Origin: a virus
IMG/VR virus record: IMGVR_UViG_3300044820_000144
Span: 1-51,591 of that record
Reading direction: 5' to 3' (one strand)
Length of the DNA: 51,591 bases
Part shown: piece after piece, positions 2,367-47,217 of the stretch
Layout of the letters: each line of letters starts with the position of its first letter
Numbering within the stretch: position 1 is the first letter of the stretch
The notes under the pieces: generated by a model
What the model saw: only the letters and a program-made list of their open reading frames with translations
Databases searched by the model: none
Told to the model about the DNA's origin: nothing
Made by a program: the position numbers and the translations under genes

Positions 2367-3437
2367 TCACTCGCCGCGCTTCGCGACGGACATGTCGATG
2401 CCGTTCATGCGCCGCACGCAACGCTGCCACGCCTGCTCGCACTCCGCCTTGGTCCCGTCGACCGGGATCTTGCCCACCTCCTGTCCCTTGTACGTGACCA
2501 TGGTGAATTTCGCGTCGCCCGCCTCGGCGATCGTGGCACCCATGTTGCGTAGCCCCGACTTCAGCTTGCCGGGGGTGTTGGGTATGCCGCTCTTCTCCTT
2601 GCGTGACCCGCCACCGCCCCGCGACTCCCTCTCGCTGATCAGCCCCGTGGTGAAGTACGCGGCGATCACCATCGGCAGGGTCGGGTCCTTGAAGCCCACC
2701 ACGACCATGTTGTCGCCGCGGTGGAACCGCAGCAGCGCGAAGCCCCGCCACGACGACGACGCGTCGACCTCCACCCGGTCGGCGTGCCGGGCCACCGACT
2801 CGCACTGCGCCAGGTCGATCCCGTGCAGCGCGGTCACGTCGTCGTGGAAACCCAGCGGCGGCCCGTCCCCCAGCCCCTGGGCCAGCAGCTCCCGCAGCTT
2901 CCACGCCTTGCCGGAGATGGCCCCCACGTCCCAGCTCTGCGAGGTGCCGGGCAGCACGGTGTACTGCCGGGGCCGGGGCGCCTGCTCGGCGGGGGCTTCC
3001 TGCCGCCACGTCGCGGGCGGCACCGGCCGCAGCCGCTCAGTGGGGGCCCCGCCGGGCGACACCACCCGCGTCGGCGCGACCGGGACAGCCCGCTCGGGCT
3101 TGGCGGCCGGCTCGGGGGCCGGCTCGGGGGCCGGCTGGGGCTCGGGCGCCGGCTGGGCGGGTGCGGCTTCCTCCACCTCCTGGGCGGCCAGCTGCTCCAT
3201 CACCAGGCGGTGACGTTCGGCGAAGTCCATGCCCCCGGCCCGCCTGCGCGTGGTCGCCGGGTTGGTCGCAGCCCGGGGGAGGGACAGCCCGTCGGGCTGC
3301 GGTGCGTTGTGCACCGTGACCTCTCCGTCGGCGTCCACCGTCACCCGGGACCAGTCGTCCTCGCACTGCGCTCGCACTCTGCGGCGCAGCGCGAGCGGTA
3401 GGCGAGCGATCTCGCGGGGGTAGGTGGCGGGTGCCAT
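2367..3437 (-). CDS. multidomain hypothetical protein; possible DUF4258/RelE-like and HicA-like C-terminal domains
   Basis: 356-aa ORF with Pro/Ala linker; ATG 7 nt after CATACT -10 (leaderless); domain calls rest on loose pattern resemblance only. Confidence 0.65.
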   Translation of the reverse strand: MAPATYPREIARLPLALRRRVRAQCEDDWSRVTVDADGEVTVHNAPQPDGLSLPRAATNPATTRRRAGGMDFAERHRLVMEQLAAQEVEEAAPAQPAPEPQPAPEPAPEPAAKPERAVPVAPTRVVSPGGAPTERLRPVPPATWRQEAPAEQAPRPRQYTVLPGTSQSWDVGAISGKAWKLRELLAQGLGDGPPLGFHDDVTALHGIDLAQCESVARHADRVEVDASSSWRGFALLRFHRGDNMVVVGFKDPTLPMVIAAYFTTGLISERESRGGGGSRKEKSGIPNTPGKLKSGLRNMGATIAEAGDAKFTMVTYKGQEVGKIPVDGTKAECEQAWQRCVRRMNGIDMSVAKRGE

Positions 3438-3454: not shown

Positions 3455-3588
3455 CCGATCGGGTCGGTTGGTGGCCCTACGTCGCGTAGAGAACGCGGTA
3501 GGTGATGGGCCGGGTGTGGCGGGTGGGACGAACACGGACGATCTGCACCCGGCCCCGCCCCTCCTGGGGCCGGGTGCAGCATCCCGCG

Positions 3589-4503
3589 TCACGACGCCAG
3601 GGGCGGGTTCTGCCGGTCGGGCGTCTGCTCCTTCGCGGTGCGCCGACGCGGGGCCCCCGGTGCCGCCTTCTTGGCGGCCGGGCGACGCCGGGGGGCGGGC
3701 GGCTCCTCGACGGCGGGCGTGGCCGCCTCGTGCTTGGCGACGAACTCCAGCAGCGCGGCCCCCAGGTCGCCGACGGTGGCGGTCTTGTCGGCCAGGGAGA
3801 CCGGCGTCGCGGACTCGACCAGCTTCGCCAGGGCCGCCGCGCGCCGGTCACGGTAGTTGGCCTCGTCGTAGGGGGTGCACAGGATGTCTGCGGCGTGCTC
3901 GGCCATCGCCAGGTACTGCTCGTTCAGGGTCCCGCCGACCTGCGGGCGGGCCCGGACCAGCTCCGGGCGGGCCAGCTGCCGCATCGTCAGCACCCCCTCC
4001 AGGGTGAAGACCTGGAACAGGGCCGGTGCCCCACCGAAGGAGAACTCCCCGATGAACCCCTTCTCCGCGTGCCGCCCGACCAGCGTGGACAGCAGGGCGT
4101 ACCCGTCCTCGAAGCCCTTGCGGGGGGCCAGGTAGTAGCTCTTGCCGGTCGGGAACAGGCCGGACAGCTCCGCCGCCGGGTGCACGGTCAGCGGGATCGT
4201 CTTCTTCTGCTCCTCGGTCGCGGCCAGCTCCTGGACCGCGGTGGTGTCGAGCATGACGACCGCCCCGCCGGCCGCACGGCCCTTGCGGAACGTGTCCCGG
4301 TCCTTGTTGTCGCACTCGGGGCAGTAGTCGACCCGCTTGATGCGGGAGGGCGCGGTGCCCTCGTGGACCGGGTCGCCGTCGTGGGTGCACAGCGAGATCA
4401 GACCCGCGTCCTCGTCCTCGACGGCACCCTGAATGCCCATGGGCACCGTGATCGGACCGAGCTGGACGGTCGCCACCCGGAACGTGCGCGCTGCTGCTGC
4501 CAT
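3589..4503 (-). CDS. ku: Ku-like DNA end-binding protein
   Basis: TVQLGPITVPM..., SRIKRVDYCPEC, FRKG, YYLAP, GYALL; basic Pro/Ala/Lys/Arg tail; AGGAGG RBS before ATG 4503. Confidence 0.8.
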   Translation of the reverse strand: MAAAARTFRVATVQLGPITVPMGIQGAVEDEDAGLISLCTHDGDPVHEGTAPSRIKRVDYCPECDNKDRDTFRKGRAAGGAVVMLDTTAVQELAATEEQKKTIPLTVHPAAELSGLFPTGKSYYLAPRKGFEDGYALLSTLVGRHAEKGFIGEFSFGGAPALFQVFTLEGVLTMRQLARPELVRARPQVGGTLNEQYLAMAEHAADILCTPYDEANYRDRRAAALAKLVESATPVSLADKTATVGDLGAALLEFVAKHEAATPAVEEPPAPRRRPAAKKAAPGAPRRRTAKEQTPDRQNPPLAS

Positions 4504-4671
4504 GACTCTTCCTCCTGAACTGCAGAGATGGGGTTCGGATTTCACACAAGGGGGGTGGTGCAGAGGGTGGGCACCTCACACAAGCCTGGGGTGTGCCGTA
4601 TCTCCAGGCGTTGGAATGGCACCCACGAGTACCTGATCGGGCTACCGGAATCACCCCGACGGCCCAAACGA

Positions 4672-4705
4672 CACGAGCCCCGAAGCACAGGGCTTCGGGG
4701 CTCGT
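4672..4705. terminator. strong hairpin, probable intrinsic terminator
   Basis: CACGAGCCCCGAAGC-ACAGG-GCTTCGGGGCTCGTG inverted repeat. Confidence 0.6.
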
Positions 4706-4768
4706 GCGCAGAGGGCCCTGGACGAAGCAGGATCCTCCGGCGGCAACCGGGGTGCGCCGGCTGCCGGG

Positions 4769-11349: not shown

Positions 11350-11388
11350 GGCGCCGACCGGCGGGCTAGGGAACCGCCGGTCGGCGCC
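11350..11388 (-). terminator. GC-rich hairpin downstream of DUF932 gene
   Basis: GGCGCCGACCGGCGG...CCGCCGGTCGGCGCC. Confidence 0.55.
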
Positions 11389-11408
11389 ACGTGCAGCGGT
11401 GCAGTGGT

Positions 11409-12700: not shown

Positions 12701-12750
12701 TACAATGCTAGACGTCTAGCACTGTATGTACCACCGCCATACGGGTGACA
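12701..12750 (-). promoter_or_regulatory. internal promoter with palindromic operator
   Basis: -10 TAGCAT inside near-perfect 26-bp palindrome TACAATGCTAGACGTCTAGCACTGTA; upstream TCACCCGT box; 14 bp identical at 16888-16901. Confidence 0.6.
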
Positions 12751-15067: not shown

Positions 15068-15098
15068 GGCCGGGCGCCCCCCTGGCGGGCGCCCGGCC
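15068..15098 (-). terminator. intrinsic terminator within the leftward arm
   Basis: Minus strand GGCCGGGCGCCC-GCCAGGG-GGGCGCCCGGCC then TTCTGTGT; directly after a TTTCAG..CTGAAA motif. Confidence 0.65.
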
Positions 15099-15991: not shown

Positions 15992-16090
15992 GACTGCCTC
16001 CTGTGCTTTTCAGAGCCCTGAACTGAACCGGCCCCCCGCCGTCCGGGTGAAGTCTTGTTACGTCGTCGCGCCCATCGCCATACGAAAGGC

Positions 16091-16363
16091 ATGAACGAGA
16101 AAGCGTGGTGCCGACGCCTGCACGAACAATTCCCGGGATGGAAGGTCTGGTACGGCACCTTGCCGCCCGAATGGTTCGCCGCCCCGATCGCACGGAGCAC
16201 TGACCTGGACGACGCTATGCGAGACCCCCACCGTCTCGGTCCCTACAGGAAACCGCAGATGCTTCGGGAGCAGATGCGGCAGCGGTATGGAGCCGGAGAT
16301 TACTGCGACACCTGTGGTGTCCCGTGGGAGCACTGTGGGCACCGGCGACCGGAGTTGGCCTAG
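16091..16363 (+). CDS. hypothetical protein, lone opposite-strand insertion
   Basis: GAAAGG RBS; LHEQFPGWKVWY; C-terminal CDTC..HCGH. Confidence 0.6.
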   Translation: MNEKAWCRRLHEQFPGWKVWYGTLPPEWFAAPIARSTDLDDAMRDPHRLGPYRKPQMLREQMRQRYGAGDYCDTCGVPWEHCGHRRPELA

Positions 16364-16394
16364 CCGCTAAGCCGTGCACCACCCGGGGGGACGT

Positions 16395-16887: not shown

Positions 16888-16940
16888 TACAATGCTAGAC
16901 GCCCGCCGCTGTAGATGGCAGACGCCGAACGGGTGACACC
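16888..16940 (-). promoter_or_regulatory. internal promoter homologous to 12701-12750
   Basis: Minus strand GTGTCACCCGT...TACAG...CGTCTAGCATTGTA. Confidence 0.55.
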
Positions 16941-17836: not shown

Positions 17837-17922
17837 GATGACCTCTCTGTTTCAGGTCCTGAATCTGTCCGAGCGGACAGCGCGGCGCAGGTCCCCCGAC
17901 CTGCACCACGCGGCACCCTCGA

Positions 17923-18486
17923 TCAGGGGTGACGGCGGATCATGCGGGCCGTGTTGTCCTCGCAGATCGACCAGCCCACGTGCCACGTCGAGCGGACCTG
18001 CGGCCCGCGCTCCGGCTGACGCTCCGGGAACGCGACCAGCTTGACCTGATCCACGTGCAGGCCGGCTGCGCGCGAATGCCCGTTGTTGTTGTCCGCCGTC
18101 CACGCCACGTGCAGGCGGTCACCCACCTTCAGGCTGCGAACGATCGTGGCCCAGACGTCACGCTGGTACGCGCTGTAGAAGCAGGCGGGGGAGTCGGGGT
18201 TGCCGCTCTCCCACCGCCACCCGCCCGTCCCGTCCGCGGCACCGTAGCCGACTGCGTCGGCCGTCGTGGCGATCTCACGGCCCCGGGTGCCGGAGTACAT
18301 GTCCACCGTGAACAGTCGCTGCTGCTTGGCCGTGAAGATCGGCGGGTCGCCGTAGGCGCGGGTGTACACGCGGAGGTACGACCGGCCGTCGTGCAGGTGC
18401 AGGCTCACGTCCTCGCACACCTTCATGGCGGCCAGGTCGTCGCCGGTCAACGTCACGACCTGCGTGTCGGTCGGGGTCTCGGTCAC
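17923..18486 (-). CDS. hypothetical protein
   Basis: GGAGG RBS, 187 aa. Confidence 0.65.
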   Translation of the reverse strand: MTETPTDTQVVTLTGDDLAAMKVCEDVSLHLHDGRSYLRVYTRAYGDPPIFTAKQQRLFTVDMYSGTRGREIATTADAVGYGAADGTGGWRWESGNPDSPACFYSAYQRDVWATIVRSLKVGDRLHVAWTADNNNGHSRAAGLHVDQVKLVAFPERQPERGPQVRSTWHVGWSICEDNTARMIRRHP

Positions 18487-19751: not shown

Positions 19752-19874
19752 TCAGGACTTGAACAGGTAGCGGACGACGATCACGATGCGGACGCGGATG
19801 CGCCGCCGGGGGGGAGGAGTCGGCAGGGTCGACAAGGCCAACCGGTGCAGCTCCGCCGGGTCGAGATCACGCAT
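19752..19874 (-). CDS. 40-aa peptide (not in ORF track)
   Basis: MRDLDPAELHRLALSTLPTPPPRRRIRVRIVIVVRYLFKS*; flanked by two motif copies, stop in motif. Confidence 0.4.
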   Translation of the reverse strand: MRDLDPAELHRLALSTLPTPPPRRRIRVRIVIVVRYLFKS

Positions 19875-19892
19875 GGGCTTGACCACGTCCTT

Positions 19893-20213
19893 TCAGGACT
19901 TGAACCGATCACAGTCACGGGGCGGCACGCGCTCGCCGAGGCTCCGTGCGAACGCCTCCCCGTCGTTCGTCCGCTGGGGGTTCAGCCGGGGCCGCTTCAC
20001 CCCGCGCGTCTCGCCTGCCATCCGCCGTGCTTCGGCCAAGAGCGCCGTAGCGATCCCGCGACGCCGGTACTCCGGCTCAACGTGGATGTCCAAGATCAAG
20101 CCGCTGCGGCGTGACCAGATCAGTACGGCAACCGCGCGGCCATCCTGTTCGGCCGTCAACCGGTGCGGCTCACCCATGCGGCTCGAATCAAGGTCATACG
20201 AATAGGTGAGCAT
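19893..20213 (-). CDS. GNAT family acetyltransferase
   Basis: ILDIHVEPEYRRRGIATALL acetyl-CoA motif; GGAG RBS. Confidence 0.85.
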   Translation of the reverse strand: MLTYSYDLDSSRMGEPHRLTAEQDGRAVAVLIWSRRSGLILDIHVEPEYRRRGIATALLAEARRMAGETRGVKRPRLNPQRTNDGEAFARSLGERVPPRDCDRFKS

Positions 20214-20235
20214 CAGCTCCCCTTTCAGATCGGAC

Positions 20236-20831
20236 GTGCAGAGCGACACACCTACCGGGCGGCAGGTGCATCACTCAGTGCGTTCGATCAAGTCCGTGGT
20301 TTCGGGCGCTACCCCGTAACGGGCACTCACGGATTACCCCGGTACGCCATATCGCTATGCGTCAGGCGTACATCTCTCATTTACCGGATCTCTCCGGCGG
20401 CACGCTTGCCTCCTCTGCGATCACCGACCTTTTCAGGGTCAGAAATCGTCAGCCGCTCAACCCCTCGCGGGTAGCGGGCTAGGTTAGACGCCTCATATCG
20501 CGTCCGTCTGCACGGCCAATCGAGGTTCAGCGATTGCCGGTTTCCCTAGCGTTGTCCCATGCGAACTAGAACCGTGTGGACGCGCGGCATGTCTCCCCTA
20601 GGGCAGTCGGCCGGTTGTCCGCGCGCATGGTGTACGTTTCGTGCGCTCGTCCTCTTTTATTGTTGGTCGGCACAATGCCGCCTATGTGCGTGCGCGTCCC
20701 TAGCTCGCAATGCCTGCACCCTGTGACGCCGTGCGGGTGTGGTGCATCGGCCAATGGCGGGAGCGTGCTGGTGATCGCTTCCTGCGGTCCCCACTACCGG
20801 GCCGGTCCGTCCCCCCGGACGGACACGGCCC
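20236..20831 (-). ncRNA. candidate large structured non-coding RNA
   Basis: ~600 nt with no credible ORF; about 10 hairpins; three GNRA loops and G-U pairs on the minus strand; long-range helix 20236-20242/20507-20513. Confidence 0.55.
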
Positions 20832-20844
20832 GATCGAAGGGAGA

Positions 20845-21699
20845 TCAGGCGGCGGACGTGGCGATGATCAGCGGGCCGAAGCTCTGCGGCGCGCGCGGGC
20901 GGACGATCTGACCGGACACGCGCTCCGGGGAGTCACCCACGACCGCGCCCGACTGCACGGCCGTACCGGCGAACCGCGAGAGGGAGTCGATGAGCGCGCG
21001 GGCCGCGTCGGCCTGCGCCTGCGTGGCCGTGGCGCCGGACAGCTTGCCGATCGGGCCCGTGATCGCCCGGAGCATGGCGTCCACGTCCACCGTGTCGCTG
21101 ACGGGCGCGTCCGGGACGTCGTCGCCACCCTCGCCACCCTCGCCGGTCGCCACGGCGGAGGACTTTTCAGAGGCAGAAACGATCACGGCCGACTCACGCT
21201 CGATCCGGGCGACGTCGTCCGCCATGAGTCCACGGATCGCCTCGATCTGGGAGGCGGCACCCGCGATCGTCGCGCGGGCGATCTTCGTGCAGCCGTTGTT
21301 GTAGAGCCGTTCCACGATTGTCTGGATCTTGCTCGGCGTGTCGATGTACTCCGCCATGAATGCCCGGTCCTCGGCGTCCGCCGTACCGGCGTACACGGGC
21401 AGCACGAGCACGGCGCCCGTGAGCGCGTGGTAGCCGAGGTACGCGTTAGAGGTACGGGTCTTGCGCACCCCCAGCTTCAGAACCTCGGCGCGCACGGCGG
21501 AGATCGTGACCCCGGAGTGCACGGTGCGGTGAAGGCCAGTGGCGGACGCAACGAATGCGTCCCGCGCGGCAACGTCGGCAACGTCGCACGCCTTGACCAG
21601 AGCGGCGGCACTCGCGGCCGTGAACGTGGTGCTCTCGGGAGTGGCGTTGTGCGCCCGGCCGGTCACGTCGCGGATCGGGGCGGTGAGCATGGCGTTCAT
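20845..21699 (-). CDS. hypothetical Ala-rich helical protein (second gene of leftward arm)
   Basis: GGAGG RBS, ATG 21699, 284 aa. Confidence 0.7.
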   Translation of the reverse strand: MNAMLTAPIRDVTGRAHNATPESTTFTAASAAALVKACDVADVAARDAFVASATGLHRTVHSGVTISAVRAEVLKLGVRKTRTSNAYLGYHALTGAVLVLPVYAGTADAEDRAFMAEYIDTPSKIQTIVERLYNNGCTKIARATIAGAASQIEAIRGLMADDVARIERESAVIVSASEKSSAVATGEGGEGGDDVPDAPVSDTVDVDAMLRAITGPIGKLSGATATQAQADAARALIDSLSRFAGTAVQSGAVVGDSPERVSGQIVRPRAPQSFGPLIIATSAA

Positions 21700-21754
21700 G
21701 GCGAAACCTCCGGTGTGGGGGTGGAGCGGGATGGGTGAGTGGGTGGAGCGCGGG

Positions 21755-21943
21755 TCAGATGGTGGACGCGTCGGAAGGCCAGAAGTTGCGGCGCCCGGCC
21801 GCACGGCGGTCGTTCTTGCGACGGTCGATCTTGCGCAGGCTGCCAGCACGCGGCGTGTAGGCGGGAGCGGTGCCCGTGCGCCGGTCGTTCGCCTTACTGC
21901 TGTCCGTCGTGGCGAGCACAACCGGGGGAACGGAAACGCGCAC
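21755..21943 (-). CDS. small basic Arg-rich protein (first gene of leftward arm)
   Basis: AGGAGG-5nt-GTG; RKIDRRKNDRRAAGRR. Confidence 0.6.
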   Translation of the reverse strand: MRVSVPPVVLATTDSSKANDRRTGTAPAYTPRAGSLRKIDRRKNDRRAAGRRNFWPSDASTI

Positions 21944-22019
21944 GGAAACCTCCTAAGTAGGGCCCACCTGTGGCATGGCACGCCCCTGGCGGGGCTGCTG
22001 GGCTCCCTTGCCGACCCCT

Positions 22020-22560
22020 AAAGAGTAGCAAGCGCAGTGCACACTGCGCTGTAGACCATATGGCTGACAGTGAACGGGTGAAATGTGGGCCGTTTCAGGG
22101 TCTGAAAGCCCCTACATAAGCGGACATATCATGCCTGAAAATGGGTTGATCCATTCCACCACCCATTCGGCGGTCGACAGGACAAGCCCAATCATGAGGG
22201 GTGTTGTGGTCGATTCTCGGGCATGTGGGTGTTAATCAGACACCACGAAGATCGCAAGAGTAGTCACCCGAACGGACTCACCCGTTCAGCCGATTGACAC
22301 CCAACCAGGCCATCCCCCCCGTTACTAGAACAAATGGACATTCAGGGTGTTTCTATCCCCGGCTGCATCCATTTCACGATGGCAACGATTCGATTTAGTG
22401 TCGTACTACCGCGGCGTTGTCACTGTCATCCGTCGTGGCGCGCGTCCGGCATTTCCGCTGGTCAGGGGCTTGGGGGATGCGCGCGACCATCGGCGAATGC
22501 CGATAGATCGATTCCGCATAACCGCAGGTCAGAGCTTGATCGTCAGAGAATGCCCGTGAA
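22020..22560. promoter_or_regulatory. divergent control region
   Basis: AT-richer, no credible ORF; leftward -10 TACTCT at ~22022-22027 beside palindrome AGCGCAGTG-CA-CACTGCGCT (22031-22050); several TCACCCG boxes; motif copy 22093-22107. Confidence 0.65.
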
Positions 22561-22598
22561 GGTCAACCAATGCCCGTGACCCCGGGTAGCCTCGATCG

Positions 22599-22838
22599 GT
22601 GACCGAGCCGAGAGACGGGCGCCGTGAGGACCTCCGGCGCTGGGCGATCAAGATGGCTGACGAGATCTACACCGACCTCTACGAGCGCGCACCGGAGGGG
22701 CGGGTCATCGGCGCGGCCGAGATCGACCTGGCCCGCTCCCGACTCGTCCTGCGGGACGCCGCGGTGCTGCTCCGGGTACGCGATCACCGGATCACGGCCC
22801 GGCTGGTGGAGAGGGCGCTGAAGGAGCTGACGCTGTGA
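22599..22838 (+). CDS. hypothetical protein (leaderless)
   Basis: TAGCCT-6nt-GTG; coupled to next ORF. Confidence 0.6.
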   Translation: MTEPRDGRREDLRRWAIKMADEIYTDLYERAPEGRVIGAAEIDLARSRLVLRDAAVLLRVRDHRITARLVERALKELTL

Positions 22839-23146: not shown

Positions 23147-23728
23147 ATGAGCGCACAGCCGTTCGATGAGGCAGCCGAGGTCCGGGTCAGCTGGGAGGAG
23201 TTCCTCCGGTTCCAGCAGGCGTACACGGGACCCGAGCGGATGGACTGGGACAACGGGCTGATCGTGCGGGCGATGACCGGCGGCAGCGAGCGGCACGACC
23301 TCGTCGTGATGGCGCTCATCGAGCAGCTGTTCCGGGTGCTGCCGGAGCGGTGCGTGGTGTTCGCGCACAACCGGCAGGTCAAGACTCCCAGCCAGCGCAG
23401 CTACCACCCCGACCTGCTGGTGCGTTGCGGCAAGGCGGCCCACCAGCTGTACGAGGAGGATGCCCGGCTGATCGTCGAGGTCCTGTCGCCCAGCAATGGC
23501 CCCGCGGAGCAGACGGCGAAGCTCTACGCCTACCAGCAGCTGCCGTCGATCGAGGCGATCTTCTTCGTGAACACCGTCCGCCGCATCGTCACCGTCCACC
23601 GCAAGCACCCTGACGGCTCCGGGTGGATGGAGAGCCAGACCCGCGACGGGGCCATCTCCAGCGGCGGCATCACGCTGGACTTCGGGGCCATGTGGAGCTG
23701 GGTCGACGAGCGCAGCACCTTCGAGTGA
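23147..23728 (+). CDS. Uma2/DUF820 family PD-(D/E)XK endonuclease
   Basis: AMTGGSERH, YHPDLLVRC, LIVEVLSPS, KLYAYQQLPSI. Confidence 0.88.
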   Translation: MSAQPFDEAAEVRVSWEEFLRFQQAYTGPERMDWDNGLIVRAMTGGSERHDLVVMALIEQLFRVLPERCVVFAHNRQVKTPSQRSYHPDLLVRCGKAAHQLYEEDARLIVEVLSPSNGPAEQTAKLYAYQQLPSIEAIFFVNTVRRIVTVHRKHPDGSGWMESQTRDGAISSGGITLDFGAMWSWVDERSTFE

Positions 23729-31226: not shown

Positions 31227-31282
31227 ACCGCCGATCGACCGGAGAGCCGTTCGGTCGCTCCACCATGCCCCGAGGGGAAACC

Positions 31283-32419
31283 GTGAGCTTCGTCGAAACT
31301 GGAATGAGTGTCACCCCGGCCCAGCTGCTCAACCGGCCCGACACGATCGTGCACGGAGAAGCCGCCCGCCTGAAGATCCGCGGCAGCAAGGTCCTGGTCA
31401 CCGGCGCCGGAGGATCCATCGGCAGCGAGATCGTCCGCCAGGTCTACGCCCTCGGCGCGGAGCAGGTCTACCTGGTGGATCATGACGAGAACGCCCTGCA
31501 CGCCGTCCAGCTGGAACTGCACGGCCACGGCCTGCTGGAATCGGACACCACCATCCTCGCCGACATCCGCGAGGCCGCCGTGATGGACCGGGTGATGCGC
31601 ACCGTCCGCCCCGACATCGTCTTCCACGCAGCCGCCCACAAGCACCTGCCCCTGCTGGAGCGCTTCCCCGCCGAAGGGGTGCGCACCAACGTCCTGGGCA
31701 CCCGCAACGTCGTGGCCGCCGCGCTCGGCGCCGGCGTCAGCGCCCTGGTCAACATCTCCACCGACAAGGCGGCCCGCCCCACGTCGGTCCTGGGCGTCAC
31801 CAAGCGCCTGGCCGAGATGGTCGTCGCAGCCCACGCCGGCGCCGGGATGGCCGTGGCGTCGGTGCGGTTCGGGAACGTCCTGGGCTCCCACGGCTCGTTC
31901 CTGCGCTCCATGGCCTACCAGGTCGCCCGCGACCTGCCGGTCACCATCACCGACCCCGCCGTCAGCCGCTACTTCATGACCATCCCCGAGGCCGCGTCCC
32001 TGGTCGTCGAAGCCTCCACCATGGCCGTGGCCGGTGAGACCTACGTGCTGGACATGGGCGAGCCGGTCCGCATCCTCGACCTGGCCCAGCGCTACCTGCG
32101 CGCCATGGGACGCCCCGACTCCCAGTACGTCCTGACCGGGCTGCGGCCGGGGGAGAAGATGCGCGAGGAGCTGTACGACGCGTTCGAGCTGCGCCAGCCG
32201 ACCCTGCATCCGCGGATCTGGTGCGTGCGCGCCCAGGACCCGCTCGGCTCGTCCGCCGCGATCCGCCGCGCCCTGGCCCTGGCCCACGTCGACGCCGACG
32301 CCGCAGCCGAGGACGTCCGCGAGGACCTGTTCGCCCTGCTGCCCACCCCCGCGCCCGCCGGCGCCGGGATGCCCGCCGTCTCCGTGCAGACCGTCGGGGC
32401 GAAGCTGGTGCCGGCCTGA
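31283..32419 (+). CDS. nucleotide-sugar 4,6-dehydratase (Polysacc_synt_2, CapD/PglF-like SDR)
   Basis: VLVTGAGGSIGSEI, VFHAAAHKH, ISTDKA, VRFGNVLGS, RYFMTIPEA, GLRPGEK. Confidence 0.93.
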   Translation: MSFVETGMSVTPAQLLNRPDTIVHGEAARLKIRGSKVLVTGAGGSIGSEIVRQVYALGAEQVYLVDHDENALHAVQLELHGHGLLESDTTILADIREAAVMDRVMRTVRPDIVFHAAAHKHLPLLERFPAEGVRTNVLGTRNVVAAALGAGVSALVNISTDKAARPTSVLGVTKRLAEMVVAAHAGAGMAVASVRFGNVLGSHGSFLRSMAYQVARDLPVTITDPAVSRYFMTIPEAASLVVEASTMAVAGETYVLDMGEPVRILDLAQRYLRAMGRPDSQYVLTGLRPGEKMREELYDAFELRQPTLHPRIWCVRAQDPLGSSAAIRRALALAHVDADAAAEDVREDLFALLPTPAPAGAGMPAVSVQTVGAKLVPA

Positions 32420-33672
32420 TGCTGTCGCTCACCCTGCCCATCGCCAGCATGCTGGTCCTGCCGCTGGTCCTGGTGCTGCTGGACCTGTTCGGGGGCCTGC
32501 GAGCCCGGCACAAGCGCACCCTCGGCTGGGACGGCACCGTCGTGGAGGACTTCGAGGTCCTCGTGCCGATCTGGGGCTCGATTCGCTACCTGGAGAACGT
32601 CGACTACCTGTCCGCCTACGGCTCCCGGGTCGTGCTGTGTACCACGGCAAGCGAAACCCCCGAGTTCAACGCCGCCGTCGACGAGCTGGCCCGCATCCAC
32701 GGGTTCCGGGTCTTCCGCGCCGAGGCCGGCAGCATGGCCCAGAACGGAACCCGCTCCACCTCCGGGACCCTGCGCGACCGCGTCGTCCGCGACGCCCACG
32801 AGGTGCTGTCCGCCCCGTGGGTGGTGTGCATCGACGCCGACACCGTCACCGAACAGCCCCTCAGCCACCTGGTCGGCGCCATGGCCAGCCAGAACGTCGA
32901 CTTCGCCTCCGTGCGCCTGGTCCCCTCCAACGCCGACACGCTGCTGGCGCGCCTGCAGGGCCACGAGTACGCGATGGCCATGCTGCTGCGCCGCATCATG
33001 CCCTGGATGGTGTCCGGGGCCTGCCACGCCGCCCGCCGCCACGTGCACAAGCGCGTCATGGCCAAGCACTCCCTCTTCTTCCAGGGCAACGACATCGAGG
33101 TCGGCCTGCTCGCCGACCGCCTCGGCTACACGGTCGGGCACGTCCCGTTCGACGTCCCCACCACCGTCCCGGCCACCCTGAAACCCTGGCTGCGCCAGCG
33201 CCTGGCCTGGGCCGGGGGAGAGGTCCGCCTCTTCGTCGCCAACCCCCAGATCATGCTGCGGCACCCGTTCTTCTGGGCCTACGGCGCCCTCATCAGCCTC
33301 GGCGGACTCCCGCTGCGCTGGTACGGGATCGCCCACCTCGGCTGGATCCTCCCCACCATCCCCGTGCTCTACGTGGCGATCCTGTCCTACCTGCAACGCG
33401 GCCGATGGAACTGGCTGATCCTGCTGATGCCCTTCTACGCCGCCGTCTCCAGCCTCCTGCTCACCCCGATCGGCCTGGTGTACTACGTGAAGATGGCCAT
33501 CGCCGACAAGAACGCCGGCCTCATCCGCATCCGCCGCCACACCCCACGCCTGCGACCCCGCTTCCCCGCCCACCGCAAGCGGGAGCGCGAGGCCGCCGCC
33601 CGCCAACAGGCCGCCCTGGCCCGGCACGCCGCCGGCGCCCGACAGGCCGTCGGCGCCCGGACCTCCTCGTGA
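32419..33672 (+). CDS. processive GT2 family membrane glycosyltransferase
   Basis: N-terminal TM, IDADT (DxD), SGAC, GND, QRLAW (QxxRW-like), C-terminal TM helices; TGATG coupling. Confidence 0.85.
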   Translation: MLSLTLPIASMLVLPLVLVLLDLFGGLRARHKRTLGWDGTVVEDFEVLVPIWGSIRYLENVDYLSAYGSRVVLCTTASETPEFNAAVDELARIHGFRVFRAEAGSMAQNGTRSTSGTLRDRVVRDAHEVLSAPWVVCIDADTVTEQPLSHLVGAMASQNVDFASVRLVPSNADTLLARLQGHEYAMAMLLRRIMPWMVSGACHAARRHVHKRVMAKHSLFFQGNDIEVGLLADRLGYTVGHVPFDVPTTVPATLKPWLRQRLAWAGGEVRLFVANPQIMLRHPFFWAYGALISLGGLPLRWYGIAHLGWILPTIPVLYVAILSYLQRGRWNWLILLMPFYAAVSSLLLTPIGLVYYVKMAIADKNAGLIRIRRHTPRLRPRFPAHRKREREAAARQQAALARHAAGARQAVGARTSS

Positions 33673-37892: not shown

Positions 37893-38384
37893 TCAGGGAA
37901 CGGGGTCGGAGAGGAACTCGGGGGCAGCCCAGCCGAGCGCGGCCATCTTCGCGACGGTGGCGGGCTTTCGGGGTGCGCGCAGGCCCACGGCGACCAGCTC
38001 GGCCACCGTCTCTTGCTGCAGCTGCAGGAAGGGCAGCAGGGCGGCCAGGACGACGGTCGCGCGGGCTCCGGACAGGCTCCACCGTCCGGAGGAGGACTGG
38101 ATGTGCACGTGCGCCTGGGGGCAGTGCACGGTGCAGCCGTTGCGCTGGTAGTCGCGTCGCACTTTCGTGACGCTGGTCCCGGTGAGGGCGGCGAGGCGCT
38201 CCAGGAGCGCCAGGTTCGGGCAGTTGATCTCAAGGAGGGGGAGCAGTGTCTCCCCGCGCACCTCCCGCAGTCGCACGGATCCCATGACGTCCACGACGCC
38301 GGCGAACCACGCCAGCTCCCGGTCGGTCAGGGGGGTGGTCGAGCCGGTTCTTTCGGGGTTCGGGTCCGCCGACGTATCGATCAT
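37893..38384 (-). CDS. LAGLIDADG-like protein, degenerate active site
   Basis: ELAWFAGVVDVMGSV helix, LEINCPNLALLERL, RWSLSG..A..VL..LLPFL. Confidence 0.7.
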   Translation of the reverse strand: MIDTSADPNPERTGSTTPLTDRELAWFAGVVDVMGSVRLREVRGETLLPLLEINCPNLALLERLAALTGTSVTKVRRDYQRNGCTVHCPQAHVHIQSSSGRWSLSGARATVVLAALLPFLQLQQETVAELVAVGLRAPRKPATVAKMAALGWAAPEFLSDPVP

Positions 38385-38411
38385 TGGACGTCCCGTGATG
38401 AAGGAAGTGCC

Positions 38412-38879
38412 ATGCCGATCATCCCGCCCATGCCCCCGGACACCGCGACGCGGATGGTGGCACTGCTGCAGCCGGCGATGACGGAGATGATCGAGCTGTC
38501 GCTGCTGGCGAAGATGGGGCACTGGTGCATGCAGGGCCACATCTCCTTCGTGGCGGTGCACCGGTTCATGGACGAGTTGGTCGACTTCGCCCGCGACGAG
38601 TACGACACCCTCGCCGAGCGGATCATCCAGCTGGGGCAGTTCCCGGACGGCCGGCTGGCCACGGTCGCGGCCCGTGCGGGTCTGCGTCCGTTCGAGCCCG
38701 AGGCGATCAGCCCGGCCGCCGTGCCGGCTGCGATCGTGCCGAACCTTCTGGTCCTGGCCCGGCGCAACCACGAGCGGTCCGTCCAGGCGGCCGAGGACCC
38801 GATCACCCAGAACATCCTGATCGACGTGTCCCAGCAGCTGGACAAGCTGTGCTGGTTCTGGCAGGCCAGCCAGAGCTGA
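38412..38879 (+). CDS. dps: Dps/ferritin-like DNA protection protein
   Basis: KMGHWCMQG, F.AVHRFMDE, YDTLAERIIQLG, DPITQN, LDKLCWF. Confidence 0.88.
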   Translation: MPIIPPMPPDTATRMVALLQPAMTEMIELSLLAKMGHWCMQGHISFVAVHRFMDELVDFARDEYDTLAERIIQLGQFPDGRLATVAARAGLRPFEPEAISPAAVPAAIVPNLLVLARRNHERSVQAAEDPITQNILIDVSQQLDKLCWFWQASQS

Positions 38880-39304: not shown

Positions 39305-40042
39305 TTACGGGCAGACGCGACCGCTGGCGTCGAACGCGGCGTGGGTCAGGGGCATCAGCTCGCGCCACAGCGCCTCCATCTGCTCGGCGACCATCTCGAT
39401 CTCGCGTTGCGGTGCGGACGGGTAGGCCGCCTCGGGCCGGTGGGTGCGCAGCGACAGGAAGTTCATGAGCGCGCGGGCGTTCATCGTGACGAACGCCGTG
39501 GAGATGATGTTCACCGGCAACACCATCCGGGCCACCTCGCGGGCGATCCCTTCGGCCAACAGTTGCTGGTAGGTGGTGTAGGCGATGCGCGACACCCGCC
39601 GGATCCCGGTGTTGGTGATGTTCGACTGGTGCTCGCTGCCGGCCACCAGCTGCGGGTGCGCCGACGTCCCGGCCTGCTGCAGGTTGCGGCCGGGGCCGGG
39701 CACGTAGAACTTGGGGTCTAGCTGCTTGTACCGGGCCGACTCTTCGTTGTAGCTCGTCGCGATCCGGTGGCGCATGAACTCCCTCCACACGAAGATCGGC
39801 GCGGAGATCATGAAGGTCATCACGTTGTGCTCGAACGGCGACCCGTGCCGGGCCCGCATCAGGTAGCGGATCAGCCCGGCGTCCGCTGCGGTGGCCTCCG
39901 CGGTGCGGGGGGCGCTGCGGTCCCCGACGGTGGAGACGCGGGCGGCCTGCACGACGCTGGTGTCGCTCGCCTCGTGCGCGACCAGGCGGACGACCATCTC
40001 GGAGGTGAACACCAGGGCGCCTTCGACGTCGATCGGGTTCAC
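39305..40042 (-). CDS. thyX: FAD-dependent thymidylate synthase
   Basis: AARVS, HGSPFEH, MRHRIATSYNEESARY, EVARMVLP, NFLSLR, QREI. Confidence 0.96.
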   Translation of the reverse strand: MNPIDVEGALVFTSEMVVRLVAHEASDTSVVQAARVSTVGDRSAPRTAEATAADAGLIRYLMRARHGSPFEHNVMTFMISAPIFVWREFMRHRIATSYNEESARYKQLDPKFYVPGPGRNLQQAGTSAHPQLVAGSEHQSNITNTGIRRVSRIAYTTYQQLLAEGIAREVARMVLPVNIISTAFVTMNARALMNFLSLRTHRPEAAYPSAPQREIEMVAEQMEALWRELMPLTHAAFDASGRVCP

Positions 40043-40353
40043 GACGCCTCCGGGGGCGTCGTGGCGGTCACGGTGAGGGCTGCGGCCTCGAAGCCGCACG
40101 CGGCGTACCCGGCGATGTCGATCCAGCTGTCCATCTTCAGCGGGTTCCAGGTGAGCCGCGAAGACTTCAGAATGATCATCATCATGGCGACGTGGTGTGC
40201 GCTGATCGGCCCCTCGTCGGGGGCGCGGAATCCGAGGGCGGTGAGGGCGTCCGCGGTCCGCTGGAAATCCTGGTGCGGTGGCCCGTAGCTATTGTTGCGG
40301 TCCTCCAATACTGCGCTCCTGGCTGCGTCGAGCACCTCGGCCCTTTGGTTCAC
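40039..40353 (-). CDS. DUF6378-like phage protein
   Basis: DRNNSYGPP..DF..TA, VAMMM..LK.SR, DSWIDIAGYAACG. Confidence 0.75.
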   Translation of the reverse strand: MNQRAEVLDAARSAVLEDRNNSYGPPHQDFQRTADALTALGFRAPDEGPISAHHVAMMMIILKSSRLTWNPLKMDSWIDIAGYAACGFEAAALTVTATTPPEAS

Positions 40354-44050: not shown

Positions 44051-44320
44051 GTGAAGCTGCTGGCGACCCTGCGGCTTCTGGTCTCATCCGTCGCTCCCAC
44101 CGGCGGGGCGACCCAGGGAGCGGTCTACTACGACTCGGCCGACAACGCGCCCCGCTATTACGACGGCACCCAGTGGGTCGACTTCAACCAGCTCGGATTC
44201 CCCGACCCCGCCATTGCGGCGATCGTCCCCGACGGCCGCCAGGTCATCTACTTCGACAAGTTCACCAATGACGGAGTGCTGACCATCAACGGAACCGGAA
44301 CCCTGATCGGAATGGTCTGA
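44051..44320 (+). CDS. small virion-associated protein
   Basis: GAVYYDS..YYDGTQW motif paralogous to N terminus of previous gene. Confidence 0.6.
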
Positions 44321-47217
44321 TGTCGATCGTCGAGCGCAAGTCCGCCACCCAGCCGGCCACCCCGCCGTCCGGGTACGTCCACTGGTTCGTCAACGCCAGC
44401 GGCCAACCCCAGTACGTCGACGAGTCCGGTGTGCTGCGCTCCTTCCTCGGCGCCACCGGCCCGACCGGCCCCACCGGACCCCAGGGCGTGCAGGGCGTCG
44501 TCGGAGCCACCGGCGTCACCGGGGCCACGGGGCCCACCGGCCTCACCGGGGGAGTCGGCGCCACCGGGCCGGTCGGGGTCACCGGCCCCATCGGGGCGAC
44601 CGGGGCGACCGGGCCGACCGGCCCCACGGGCGTCACGGGCCCCACCGGCCCCGGGCACACCTGGCGCGGCGCCTGGTCCGCGGTCACCGCCTACGTCGCC
44701 AACGACGTCGTCCAGTCCGCCGGGTCCAACTGGATCGCCCTGCAGCCCAGCACGAACGTCACCCCCGTCGCCGGCGCCACGTGGGCCCTGTTCACCTCCG
44801 TGGGAGCCACCGGCGCCACGGGCGTCACCGGCCCCACCGGCGTCACCGGAGCGACCGGGCCGATCGGGGCCACCGGGCCCGTCGGGGTCACCGGACCCGT
44901 CGGCGCCACCGGCGTGACCGGTCCCACCGGGCTCACGGGCGCGACCGGGCCGACGATCACCTACCGCGGTGCGTGGACGACCGCCACCGCCTACGCCGTC
45001 CTGGACGAGACCACCCAGTCCGGCAGCTCCTATCGGTGCATCCTGGCCCACACCTCCGGCGCCACCACCCAGCCCGGGATCGGCGCGAGCTGGACCACCA
45101 ACTGGGCCGTGGAGGCCGCAGCCGGCCAAACCGGCCCTACGGGCGTCACCGGGCCCATCGGAGCCACCGGTCCCGTCGGTGTCACGGGACCCATCGGCGT
45201 CACCGGCCCGATCGGCGTCACCGGTCCGGTGGGAGCGACCGGACCCGTCGGCGCGACAGGCCCGGTCGGGGCCACCGGTCCCACCGGAGTCACCGGGCCC
45301 GCCCCGACGTTCCTGGGCGCCTGGAGCGCCTCGGTCACCTACACCGTGGGGCAGCTGGTCAGCTACCAGGGATCCACCTGGGCCGCCGCCGCGACGAGCC
45401 TCAACGTCCCCCCGGCCACCGGCGCGTTCTGGGCCCTGGTCGCCTCCGTCGGCGCGACAGGAGCCACCGGCCCGGTCGGCGCCACGGGTGCCACGGGCTC
45501 GACCGGGCCCACCGGCGTCACCGGTCCCACCGGACCCGCACACGTCTACAACGTCACCGACTACGGGATCGTCGCCGGATCCTCCGCCGTCGCCGGCGCC
45601 AACGTCACCGCGTGGAACACCCTGATGACCACCGTGGCGGACAACGGGACGGTCTACTTCCCGCCCGGCCCCAACCAGTTCTACTTCAACGCTGCCCTCA
45701 ACATCCCCACCGGCAAGCACCTGCGCATCCAGGGCGGCGGCAACCAGAAGTCCATCATCACCACCACCAGCGCCACCGCGGACATCTTCACCTGCGGCGA
45801 CTGGTACCAGGAGTTCCGCGGCCTGAAGTTCACCTCCTCGGTGACCCGCACCGCCGGCGCAGCGATCAACAGTGGGAACAACGTCCACATCGACGTGTTC
45901 GACTGCGACTTCGCCGGCATGTGGGACGGCATCGTCTACACCGGTGGCGTCAACGCCGGGAACCTCGCCAACGTCTTCAACTGCAACTTCACGAACACCC
46001 TCAGCCGCGGCATCGTCATTGACGGCACCAACGCCAACACGATCCTCACGAACATCACCATGGACGGCACCCTCGGCGTCCAGGTCGCCGGTCTCGCCCT
46101 CCTGCAGTGCGGATCACTGCTGGTCACCAACTGTGACTTCATCCGGGCCCAGAACAACCTGGTCATGAGCCCGACGAGCCCGAACGGGGTGTTCGCGGCC
46201 TACTTCGTCAACACCTTCTTCGACACCTCCTCCGCCAGCTCCGTCAAGCTCACTGGCACCGGCAACATCCAGCGGATCAAGTTCACGAACTGCTGGTTCT
46301 CCGGCTCCGTCACCGGCCTGGAGTTCGCCTCCACCGCGACGACCCTGCCGACCGCGATCGACCTGGTGAACTGCGACATCTTCGGCAACTCCAGCCGCGG
46401 CATCTACGCCAACGGCGTCCAGGACTTCACCGTCACCGGCTCCCGCATCGCCGGGAACACCACCGCCGGCATCGAGACCAACGCCTCCACCGGCTCGGTC
46501 ACCGAGTTCAACCTGACCGGCAACACCGTCGGCGGCACCGCGGGCTTCGGGAATAACGGCACCGGCCTCATCATCAACGCCGGAACCTACAAGTCCTACC
46601 AGATCAGCAACAACGACTTCCAGGACAACACCACCGCCCTTACCGACAACGGCACCGTCGTCCGTGGCAAGCGAATCCGGGACAACCTCCCCAACTTCCT
46701 CACCGATACGCTCACCGTCGGCACAATCGCCACCGTCACTGCCTCCACGGCTGACAACTACGGCCTGCAGTTCACCATCCCCGCCAACACCATCGTCGCG
46801 AACTCCCAGCTCGAATTCGAGCTGATGGGCTTCATGACGAACAACGCCACAAGCGTGAGCTTCACTGCGTTCCTCATGCTCAACGGCACCAAGTACGCAG
46901 TCACGACGCTGACCACGGGCGGCATCGCCTTCACGAACCGCCAATGGCTCTACCGAGGGATGCTGCAGTTCAAGTCGACGGGCGCGACCGGTTCGTTCGT
47001 CACGATGGCGAAGATGGAGACGGGCCCTGCAAGCGCCCAGGCGACCGCCAATACGACCAGCCTGACGGCGTTCGCGAGCAATGCCGGCACTCCCACCACG
47101 ACCACCATCGCCACCAACGCCGACATCCTCGTCAAGATTGGGTGTGCGCAGTCCGGGGCCACCGCCACCGCCAGCAGCATCATGACCGGCCACGTCATCC
47201 AGACGTCCGCCAGATAA
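44320..47217 (+). CDS. collagen-like fibre with carbohydrate-binding repeats and beta-helix (depolymerase-like) domain
   Basis: Four G-x-T triplet blocks separated by three (R/L)GAW..Y..V..GS modules; [15 protein letters not shown]; Asn/Gly-rich beta-helix repeats. Confidence 0.85.

Follow-up and report, generated by a model that had tools for sequence, protein, structure and literature searches.

At the head of a long leftward gene array in a soil actinophage lies a conserved pair of elements, an orphan protein of 284 amino acids (aa) and a structured non-coding RNA of ~560 nt, for which the single most likely function, assigned tentatively, is that the RNA serves as a cis-acting leader governing read-through into the array, perhaps in concert with the protein. 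The stretch of DNA analyzed (51,591 nt, hereafter the window) is the first 51.6 kb of the 136-kb IMG/VR virus record IMGVR_UViG_3300044820_000144, which is estimated to be 95% complete and has a G+C content of ~69%. Gene calling based on G+C content at third codon positions (GC3) gives a leftward array that runs from 21943 down to position 1 and contains at least 30 genes and two tRNAs, all co-directional; a divergent gap separates it from a rightward array that begins at 22599. The interval described here would form the control head of the leftward array, its conserved core being the 284-aa gene, a strong hairpin and the structured RNA, all with the same direction of transcription. Sequence comparison shows that these elements exist, that protein and RNA have been conserved as a pair and that covariation supports the RNA structure; from this we infer co-transcription, the control of read-through and any partnership between protein and RNA.

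The RNA, which could be a leader or a separate RNA, occupies 20229-20789 (−) within a gene-free stretch (20214-20844, 631 nt) that has no frame bias and folds with a minimum-free-energy z-score of −3.6 relative to shuffled sequences, confirming the structured RNA that a preliminary description of this DNA had placed after the 284-aa gene. The 3′ ~170 nt of the RNA align with positions 1737-1912 of a 9.1-kb contig from Logan (L010) at 86% mean column identity. This conserved 3′ domain (20236-20405, −) includes a 33-nt block that is identical in L010 and is predicted to contain seven helices, ending in a terminal 12-bp hairpin. Both sequences retain every one of the 45 predicted pairs, five changes being compensatory and four wobble, whereas in a control in which the partners were slid by 1-3 columns only 32-38% of cells pair. 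The G-U pairs identify the minus strand, the strand of the array, as the sense strand of the RNA. Homology between the window and L010 extends to the middle part of the gap (Smith-Waterman z = 4.5), and the corresponding L010 gap (750 nt and gene-free) folds with a z-score of −3.2. By these comparative measures the structured RNA is real and under far stronger constraint than the neighboring protein.

Searches for further copies of the RNA were negative. A covariance model (R1) scores 201 and 210 bits for its two building sequences, which match by construction, and found no third copy in any locus fetched and nothing credible on 16 loci from distant relatives of the array gene at 17923-18486; a 21-bit match in one locus (L055) was rejected because it overlaps a gene end and a terminator hairpin. 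The RNA core pattern had no true match in IMG/VR, JGI metagenomes or GTDB genomes, and the 26 seed matches obtained in metagenomes with a second RNA block pattern were all attributed to chance by R1. Rfam 15, known antitermination RNAs included, gave no match at E ≤ 10 over 19800-22700 and only tRNAs at E ≤ 1 over 1-22700, and no ribozyme was found by Rfam in the leftward arm of the window.

The 284-aa gene (20845-21699, −) follows a small open reading frame (ORF), as first described, and is clearly coding (GC3 ~0.9). An exhaustive HMMER search of 1.84 billion representative proteins returned two homologs with 36-37% identity, P0003 (E = 5.5e-15) and P0004 (E = 1e-7), from the contigs L010 and L011 (2.4 kb, JGI). 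The family has no match in Pfam, PHROGs, PADLOC, the ESM Atlas or a PDB profile search, and AlphaFold models from the single sequence and from the three-sequence alignment of the family (A3) were unusable, with predicted local distance difference test (pLDDT) values of 36-37. Directly 3′ of the stop codon stands a GC hairpin (20790-20841, −; −40 kcal/mol, without a U tail), and an equivalent hairpin follows the homologous gene in both L010 and L011. No match to the region or to the 284-aa protein was found in 50,697 phage records (megablast, blastn and tblastn), and a search of IMG/VR for related loci with the 284-aa protein found none.

The layout of the window is repeated in L010, where the 284-aa homolog is followed by the hairpin, the gene-free gap and an array of small genes. 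Protein and RNA thus stand in the same order in both, the protein at 36% identity and the RNA 3′ domain at 86%. Two of the L010 array genes match window genes further along the arm (65% and 49% identity), whereas the first gene after the RNA differs, being a GNAT acetyltransferase in the window (19893-20213, −; Pfam Acetyltransf_1, 8.6e-09) and an unrelated 87-aa gene in L010. Because the gene after the RNA differs while those beyond it are syntenic, the comparison suggests that the RNA goes with the operon position and not with one gene. The 284-aa family was found on the same three contigs (the window's genome, L010 and L011) as a repeated palindromic motif, described below, and on no others, which is suggestive, though not proof, of protein and motif traveling together. 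The arm gene at 17923-18486 also led to 15 loci with more distant relatives of it, and the incomplete stretches fetched from these showed no motif, 284-aa homolog or RNA; one such relative has 58% identity in this gene, closer than L010, and another lies on a 117-kb contig.

The mechanism we favor begins with a leader RNA that is made within the array transcript and ends 20-60 nt short of the ribosome-binding site that serves the first array gene. Since the terminal hairpin of the RNA has no U tract and the next ribosome-binding site is close by, co-transcription is favored over a separate transcript. Acting in cis, the leader would decide whether RNA polymerase passes the hairpins into and along the array, by processive antitermination or by attenuation. 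The 284-aa protein would be a possible partner of the RNA, in the manner of conAn1/conAn2 of the conjugative element pLS20, or the RNA may act by itself, as EAR and put do; the small ORF would be a lineage-specific add-on outside the core.

In pLS20 (NC_015148), the conAn2 RNA performs antitermination and the ConAn1 protein gives processivity (PMC8191782). We checked its layout: after conAn1 (172 aa, 2564-3082) there are 383 nt free of genes, and the next gene, at 3466, leads into the conjugation operon. The window and L010 likewise have, close to the start of the operon, a protein gene that is directly followed by several hundred nt of non-coding sequence (gaps of 631 and 750 nt, respectively, compared with the 260-600 nt non-coding RNA region expected of such systems) and then by an array of genes, which in the window contains strong internal hairpins. 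Sequence homology does not accompany this likeness: comparison of A3 with ConAn1 in hhalign gave a probability of 0.1%. True conAn systems are themselves poorly conserved in protein and RNA, with 13-33% protein identity (PMC8191782). The locus differs further in belonging to a high-GC actinophage, as opposed to a Firmicute conjugative element, in having a strong hairpin between protein gene and RNA, and in that the L011 protein gene is not followed by the RNA; antitermination would apply here by analogy. As the layout is the same but no profile relationship to ConAn1 exists, the relation to pLS20 is one of architecture, not family membership. The pLS20-like half of the preliminary description therefore survives as an analogy, somewhat strengthened by L010, with the 284-aa protein and not the small ORF in the role of partner.

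The other comparison is with RNA-only antiterminators, HK022 put and Bacillus EAR, the latter of which lies within its operon, after the first genes (PMC8191782). What would be shared is a structured RNA that lies inside an operon or at its head and acts in cis on the polymerase transcribing it; the differences are that put and EAR are much smaller and that the present RNA has no Rfam match.

Several observations weigh against control of read-through by the RNA. Its structure is drawn from two sequences, and it matches no Rfam family, those of known antitermination RNAs among them; nor, as noted, is A3 related to ConAn1. The RNA does not come after the 284-aa gene in L011, where the long gene-free stretch upstream of that gene is not demonstrably homologous. 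That 540-nt gap was tried as an RNA homolog and rejected (Smith-Waterman z = 2.3, no R1 match and a fold z-score of only −2.4). A very strong hairpin stands at either end of the RNA (−40 and −34 kcal/mol), an arrangement that fits a discrete stand-alone RNA equally well. No promoter could be placed for the array head: the leftward promoter proposed at ~22025 could not be verified, with no sigma-70-like promoter found there or elsewhere in 21944-22600.

The hairpins within the array add to these points. About eight strong hairpins are present, including 15098-15068, ~11355-11395 and ~4663-4714, in agreement with the long same-strand array with internal terminator hairpins (at 15068, 11350 and 4672) first described; only two of them (15098-15068 and 4694-4676), however, combine a stem with a U tail as canonical terminators do. 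Most of the internal hairpins lack U tails, and overall hairpin counts do not exceed those of shuffled sequences. What counts as a terminator in Actinobacteria is debated, and, judging by published in vitro work with mycobacterial RNA polymerase, hairpins lacking a U tail may not terminate actinobacterial RNA polymerase. In addition, an exact 13-mer, GTCTAGCATTGTA, which contains TAnnnT, occurs in the two larger internal gaps, at 16888-16900 and 12701-12713 (−), the copy at 12713 forming half of a 26-bp near-palindrome. These copies may be internal promoters (or operators), which would remove the need for antitermination. Elsewhere in the array, a second long gene-free gap (15992-16394, 403 nt) contains several moderate hairpins with no Rfam match and ends in a motif copy and an AGGAGG ribosome-binding site.

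The motif itself reads TTCAG-N3/4-CTGAA, a palindrome that is usually extended by a further T and A at its ends. Exact GACCCTGAAA occurs at 20431-20440 and 22093-22102, and allowing up to one mismatch gives 11 copies, with 1.7 expected. In all, 22 copies lie on the sense strand of the arm, against only three or so in the remaining 114 kb, and 18 of the 22 are intergenic or overlap a stop codon, compared with an intergenic fraction of 18% (P = 1.7e-10). Fifteen stand at gene junctions, 5-86 nt (mostly 10-28 nt) upstream of start codons. The motif also overlaps the 3′ ends of genes, so that protein C-termini are constrained: two adjacent genes both end in Phe-Lys-Ser-stop (TTCAAGTCCTGA, at 19752-19763 and 19893-19904), the second being the GNAT gene, whose stop codon falls within the motif copy at 19892-19904. 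The window copies, read on the sense strand, never vary in their 3′ half, CTGAA, but do vary in their 5′ half; L010 shows the opposite asymmetry, its 5′ half being the better kept. In L010, which has ~15 copies, and in L011 the motif takes the form TTTCA-N4-TGAAA, and almost all gene junctions carry it, at a distance of 2-38 nt from the ribosome-binding site. A search of IMG/VR with an exact 17-mer of the motif returned five chance matches, all in low-GC phages, and a non-exhaustive screen of 20 large ORFs found no phage-encoded RNA polymerase that might read it. The preliminary description had also remarked on motif copies adjoining terminator hairpins. This adjacency is incidental, because both kinds of element are intergenic, and most motif junctions have no strong hairpin.

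Two side observations concern motif junctions in the relatives. An intergenic hairpin followed by a small hairpin, GTCCGCTCGGAC, upstream of a motif copy is kept in the window (17870-17921) and in L010 (~4150-4205), and L010 has GTCCGCTCGGAC at one more junction. In L011, directly upstream of a motif copy and flanked by a 61-aa Cys-rich ORF and the 284-aa homolog, lies a candidate type II hammerhead ribozyme (RF02276; L011:1041-1105, +) that scores 37.7 bits against a gathering score of 37 and has the core CCGAUGA in place of CUGAUGA (C for the core U).

The closest analogue of the motif, by its distribution, is the dispersed intergenic 17-bp palindrome TGTTCGG-N3-CCGAACA of Cluster O mycobacteriophages, which is present in 34 copies and whose role is unknown (PMC4351075). 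The window shares with these sites, and with Cluster A stoperators, the presence of many copies of one short site (~20) enriched in the short intergenic gaps of one long co-directional arm, and a palindrome with a 3-4 nt spacer like that of Cluster O. It differs in the motif sequence, in its shorter arms (5-6 bp), in its variable spacer and in the placement of the copies just upstream of ribosome-binding sites. Unlike the motif, Cluster A stoperators are asymmetric sites with a known repressor. The palindromes would be a separate layer of control, as sites for a DNA- or RNA-binding factor and not as nut or boxB sites.

The first motif copy, TTTCAG-ACC-CTGAAA (22093-22107, −), heads the leftward arm, preceding the start of the small ORF by 150 nt, and lies in a divergent control region that holds several further candidate elements. 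Upstream of it is a 13-nt element, GGCATGATATGTC (22123-22135, −), that may serve as a promoter or operator element; an identical 13-mer is found at L011:221-233, likewise upstream of the first motif copy of that contig. In L010 (194-238) the first copy, TTTCAGACGTGAAA, is flanked by two 14-bp direct repeats, GCCATGATCGCAGG, that are related to GGCATGATATGTC. On the array side of the motif, a 9-bp inverted repeat, AGCGCAGTG-TG-CACTGCGCT (22031-22050, −), reads as a candidate operator or 5′ hairpin, and just after it comes CTCTTTA (22019-22025), which is boxA-like and has no other minus-strand copy in the genome. TCTACAGCG is common to the head region (22047-22055) and to 16907-16915. The leader and small-ORF region (21690-22110) is not unusually structured, with a fold z-score of +0.3.

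The preliminary description had proposed that the first gene of the array is lambda-N-like and acts through boxB-like sites. In lambda, N is a small Arg-rich protein, and boxB is a short GC stem with a GNRA-like pentaloop that lies beside boxA, once per early operon. The basic 62-aa ORF on which the proposal turned is present as described: it occupies 21755-21943 (−), contains RKIDRRKNDRRAAGRR and has a perfect AGGAGG ribosome-binding site (21949-21954) five nt ahead of its GTG start. Its Arg-rich stretch (residues 37-52 of 62, in the C-terminal half) carries a tandem 15-nt duplication of five codons, encoding RKIDR/RKNDR. The frame has a GC3 of 0.83 and a codon log-odds score of +0.18 bits/codon (overlapping frame, −0.94; for comparison, 284-aa gene, +0.54, and GNAT gene, +0.01), and it is plausible, though not proven, from these values that the ORF is a lineage-specific gene. 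Among 5.8 billion proteins it matches only itself (called there as 54 aa), and it has no Pfam or PHROG family at E ≤ 0.1, no PADLOC family and no homology to pLS20 ConAn1 (BLASTP E = 1.7). Conservation was judged in L010 and L011, the only two relatives with the 284-aa gene. The 437 nt upstream of the 284-aa homolog in L010 contain the first motif copy and no ORF with a ribosome-binding site, and the 61-aa Cys-rich ORF at the equivalent position of L011 is unrelated; the small ORF is therefore conserved in neither, an outcome named beforehand as counting against the N-like reading. Nor does the motif copy inside the RNA fold as GACCCU-GAAA-AGGUC, the boxB-like hairpin first drawn for it. That copy (20431-20445), the only one with flanking complementarity, is predicted to form an 11-bp stem (within 20418-20452) with a 7-nt loop, CUGAAAA, and this extended stem is unique to it, not being formed at the aligned positions of L010.

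It is accordingly very improbable that the 62-aa protein binds boxB-like motif hairpins on nascent RNA and so renders RNA polymerase resistant to terminators. The resemblance to lambda is not without substance: a small basic protein comes first in the early operon, its ORF has the best ribosome-binding site of the region and a positive codon score, its Arg-rich stretch is similar in composition to arginine-rich RNA-binding peptides, and the leader region has one boxA-like heptamer and one motif copy able to form an 11-bp hairpin with an A-rich loop. However, neither the ORF nor the hairpin is conserved. The former has no homolog anywhere searched and no Pfam or PHROG match, and it is missing from L010 and swapped for the Cys-rich ORF in L011 even though the neighboring protein and the motif are kept; the latter lacks its extended stem at the equivalent L010 positions and has a 7-nt loop in place of a GNRA-like pentaloop. 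The Arg-rich stretch, moreover, is in the C-terminal half, whereas that of N is N-terminal, and the motif stands at 15 gene junctions close upstream of ribosome-binding sites, whereas nut sites occur once per operon. With the motif at every gene junction and the small ORF not conserved, an N/nut mechanism is contradicted. Of the actinophage early-expression system envisaged at this position, the conserved protein and RNA module at the head stands, while its mechanism, an Arg-rich protein with boxB-like sites, is unsupported. Co-occurrence across the relatives is divided in the same way, in that the 284-aa protein and RNA are found together in L010, the small ORF is not found with them, and L011 has the protein without the RNA after it. 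An Arg-rich small ORF beside a hairpin with an A-rich loop is insufficient to infer an N-like system.

Two further explanations have to be weighed. The parts may be independent of one another, with a stand-alone phage RNA (serving, for example, in host takeover, counter-defense or as a scaffold) and palindromes that are DNA operators silencing or timing the arm; we regard this as a possibility, to be held as tentatively as the leader itself. The bracketing hairpins give the RNA the appearance of a discrete unit, and its size is like that of other large phage RNAs of unknown role, but no promoter was found for it. The phage is probably temperate, since it encodes a large serine recombinase (Resolvase and Recombinase domains; G000 113718-115289, −) and a primase-helicase, and the regulator of the palindromes could be an immunity repressor or the 284-aa protein, in the manner of the Cluster A stoperators or the Cluster O palindrome. 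That the motif is an AT-rich palindrome whose RNA hairpins are weak (−0.4 to −4.8 kcal/mol) is consistent with recognition as DNA, as are the copy in the divergent control region, its flanking 14-bp direct repeats in L010 and the precedent for dispersed intergenic palindromes in actinophages (PMC4351075); that the motif and the 284-aa family were found together on three contigs only, and in none of the 15 distant-relative loci, also speaks for this explanation. On the other hand, the 284-aa family and the 62-aa ORF yielded no helix-turn-helix or other DNA-binding domain, a spacer that changes in length inside one phage (3 or 4 nt) and from phage to phage is unusual for a protein that binds DNA as a dimer, and the fairly tight spacing upstream of ribosome-binding sites suggests a link to mRNA.

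This last feature leads to the other explanation, in which the palindromes work at the mRNA level, as short hairpins before each ribosome-binding site that are recognized by a phage translational regulator or a processing nuclease, or that stabilize 5′ ends after cleavage, the factor being encoded by the head module. T4 RegA and RegB follow a comparable logic as translational regulator and processing nuclease. The placement of the 15 junction copies, repeated in L010, and the invariance of the sense-strand 3′ half in the window would be expected of such sites, and the candidate hammerhead directly upstream of a motif copy in L011 hints at processing of polycistronic RNA. The hairpins are very weak by themselves, however; the asymmetry is the opposite in L010, the first copy lies in the divergent control region and may not be transcribed, and no RNA-binding or nuclease domain was found in the head-module proteins by Pfam, PHROG and profile searches. 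We consider this explanation unlikely, though far less so than an N-like system.

Beyond the control head, the window is that of an uncultured soil phage, a high-GC actinophage with very few relatives: its portal protein matches one 14.7-kb IMG/VR contig (41%) and the deposited phage GX15bay (34%) and nothing else. The rightward part encodes a Uma2-family putative endonuclease (23147-23728, +), a ferritin-like protein (38013-38879, +) and a ThyX thymidylate synthase (39305-40099, −). A Polysacc_synt_2/NAD-dependent epimerase-dehydratase gene (E = 1e-92) adjoins a family-2 glycosyltransferase gene at 31265-33672 (+), the two forming a pair of sugar-modification genes, and a 965-aa protein (44320-47217, +) with collagen repeats, CBM5/12 carbohydrate-binding modules and a right-handed beta-helix is probably a fiber or depolymerase.

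Returning to the leader RNA and its possible protein partner, a protein-plus-RNA module kept at the head of a long operon, in phages whose proteins now share 36% identity, points to a switch acting on the operon as a whole, and the locus makes a compact, testable unit of a single orphan protein and a single RNA. Very few systems of processive antitermination are known, and we know of none described in phages of high-GC Actinobacteria. A more specific version, which we put forward as rather improbable, is that bipartite processive antitermination arose independently in a narrow clade of soil actinophages, through a module of the 284-aa protein and the ~560-nt leader RNA that licenses the 22-kb early array and is unrelated in sequence to conAn, N/nut, put and EAR; the palindromes could then be further sites of the same protein. 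Even without a role in read-through, the locus offers a new large structured RNA from uncultured soil phages that belongs to no Rfam family, and a system of gene-junction palindromes that was detected on no contigs but the three with the orphan protein.

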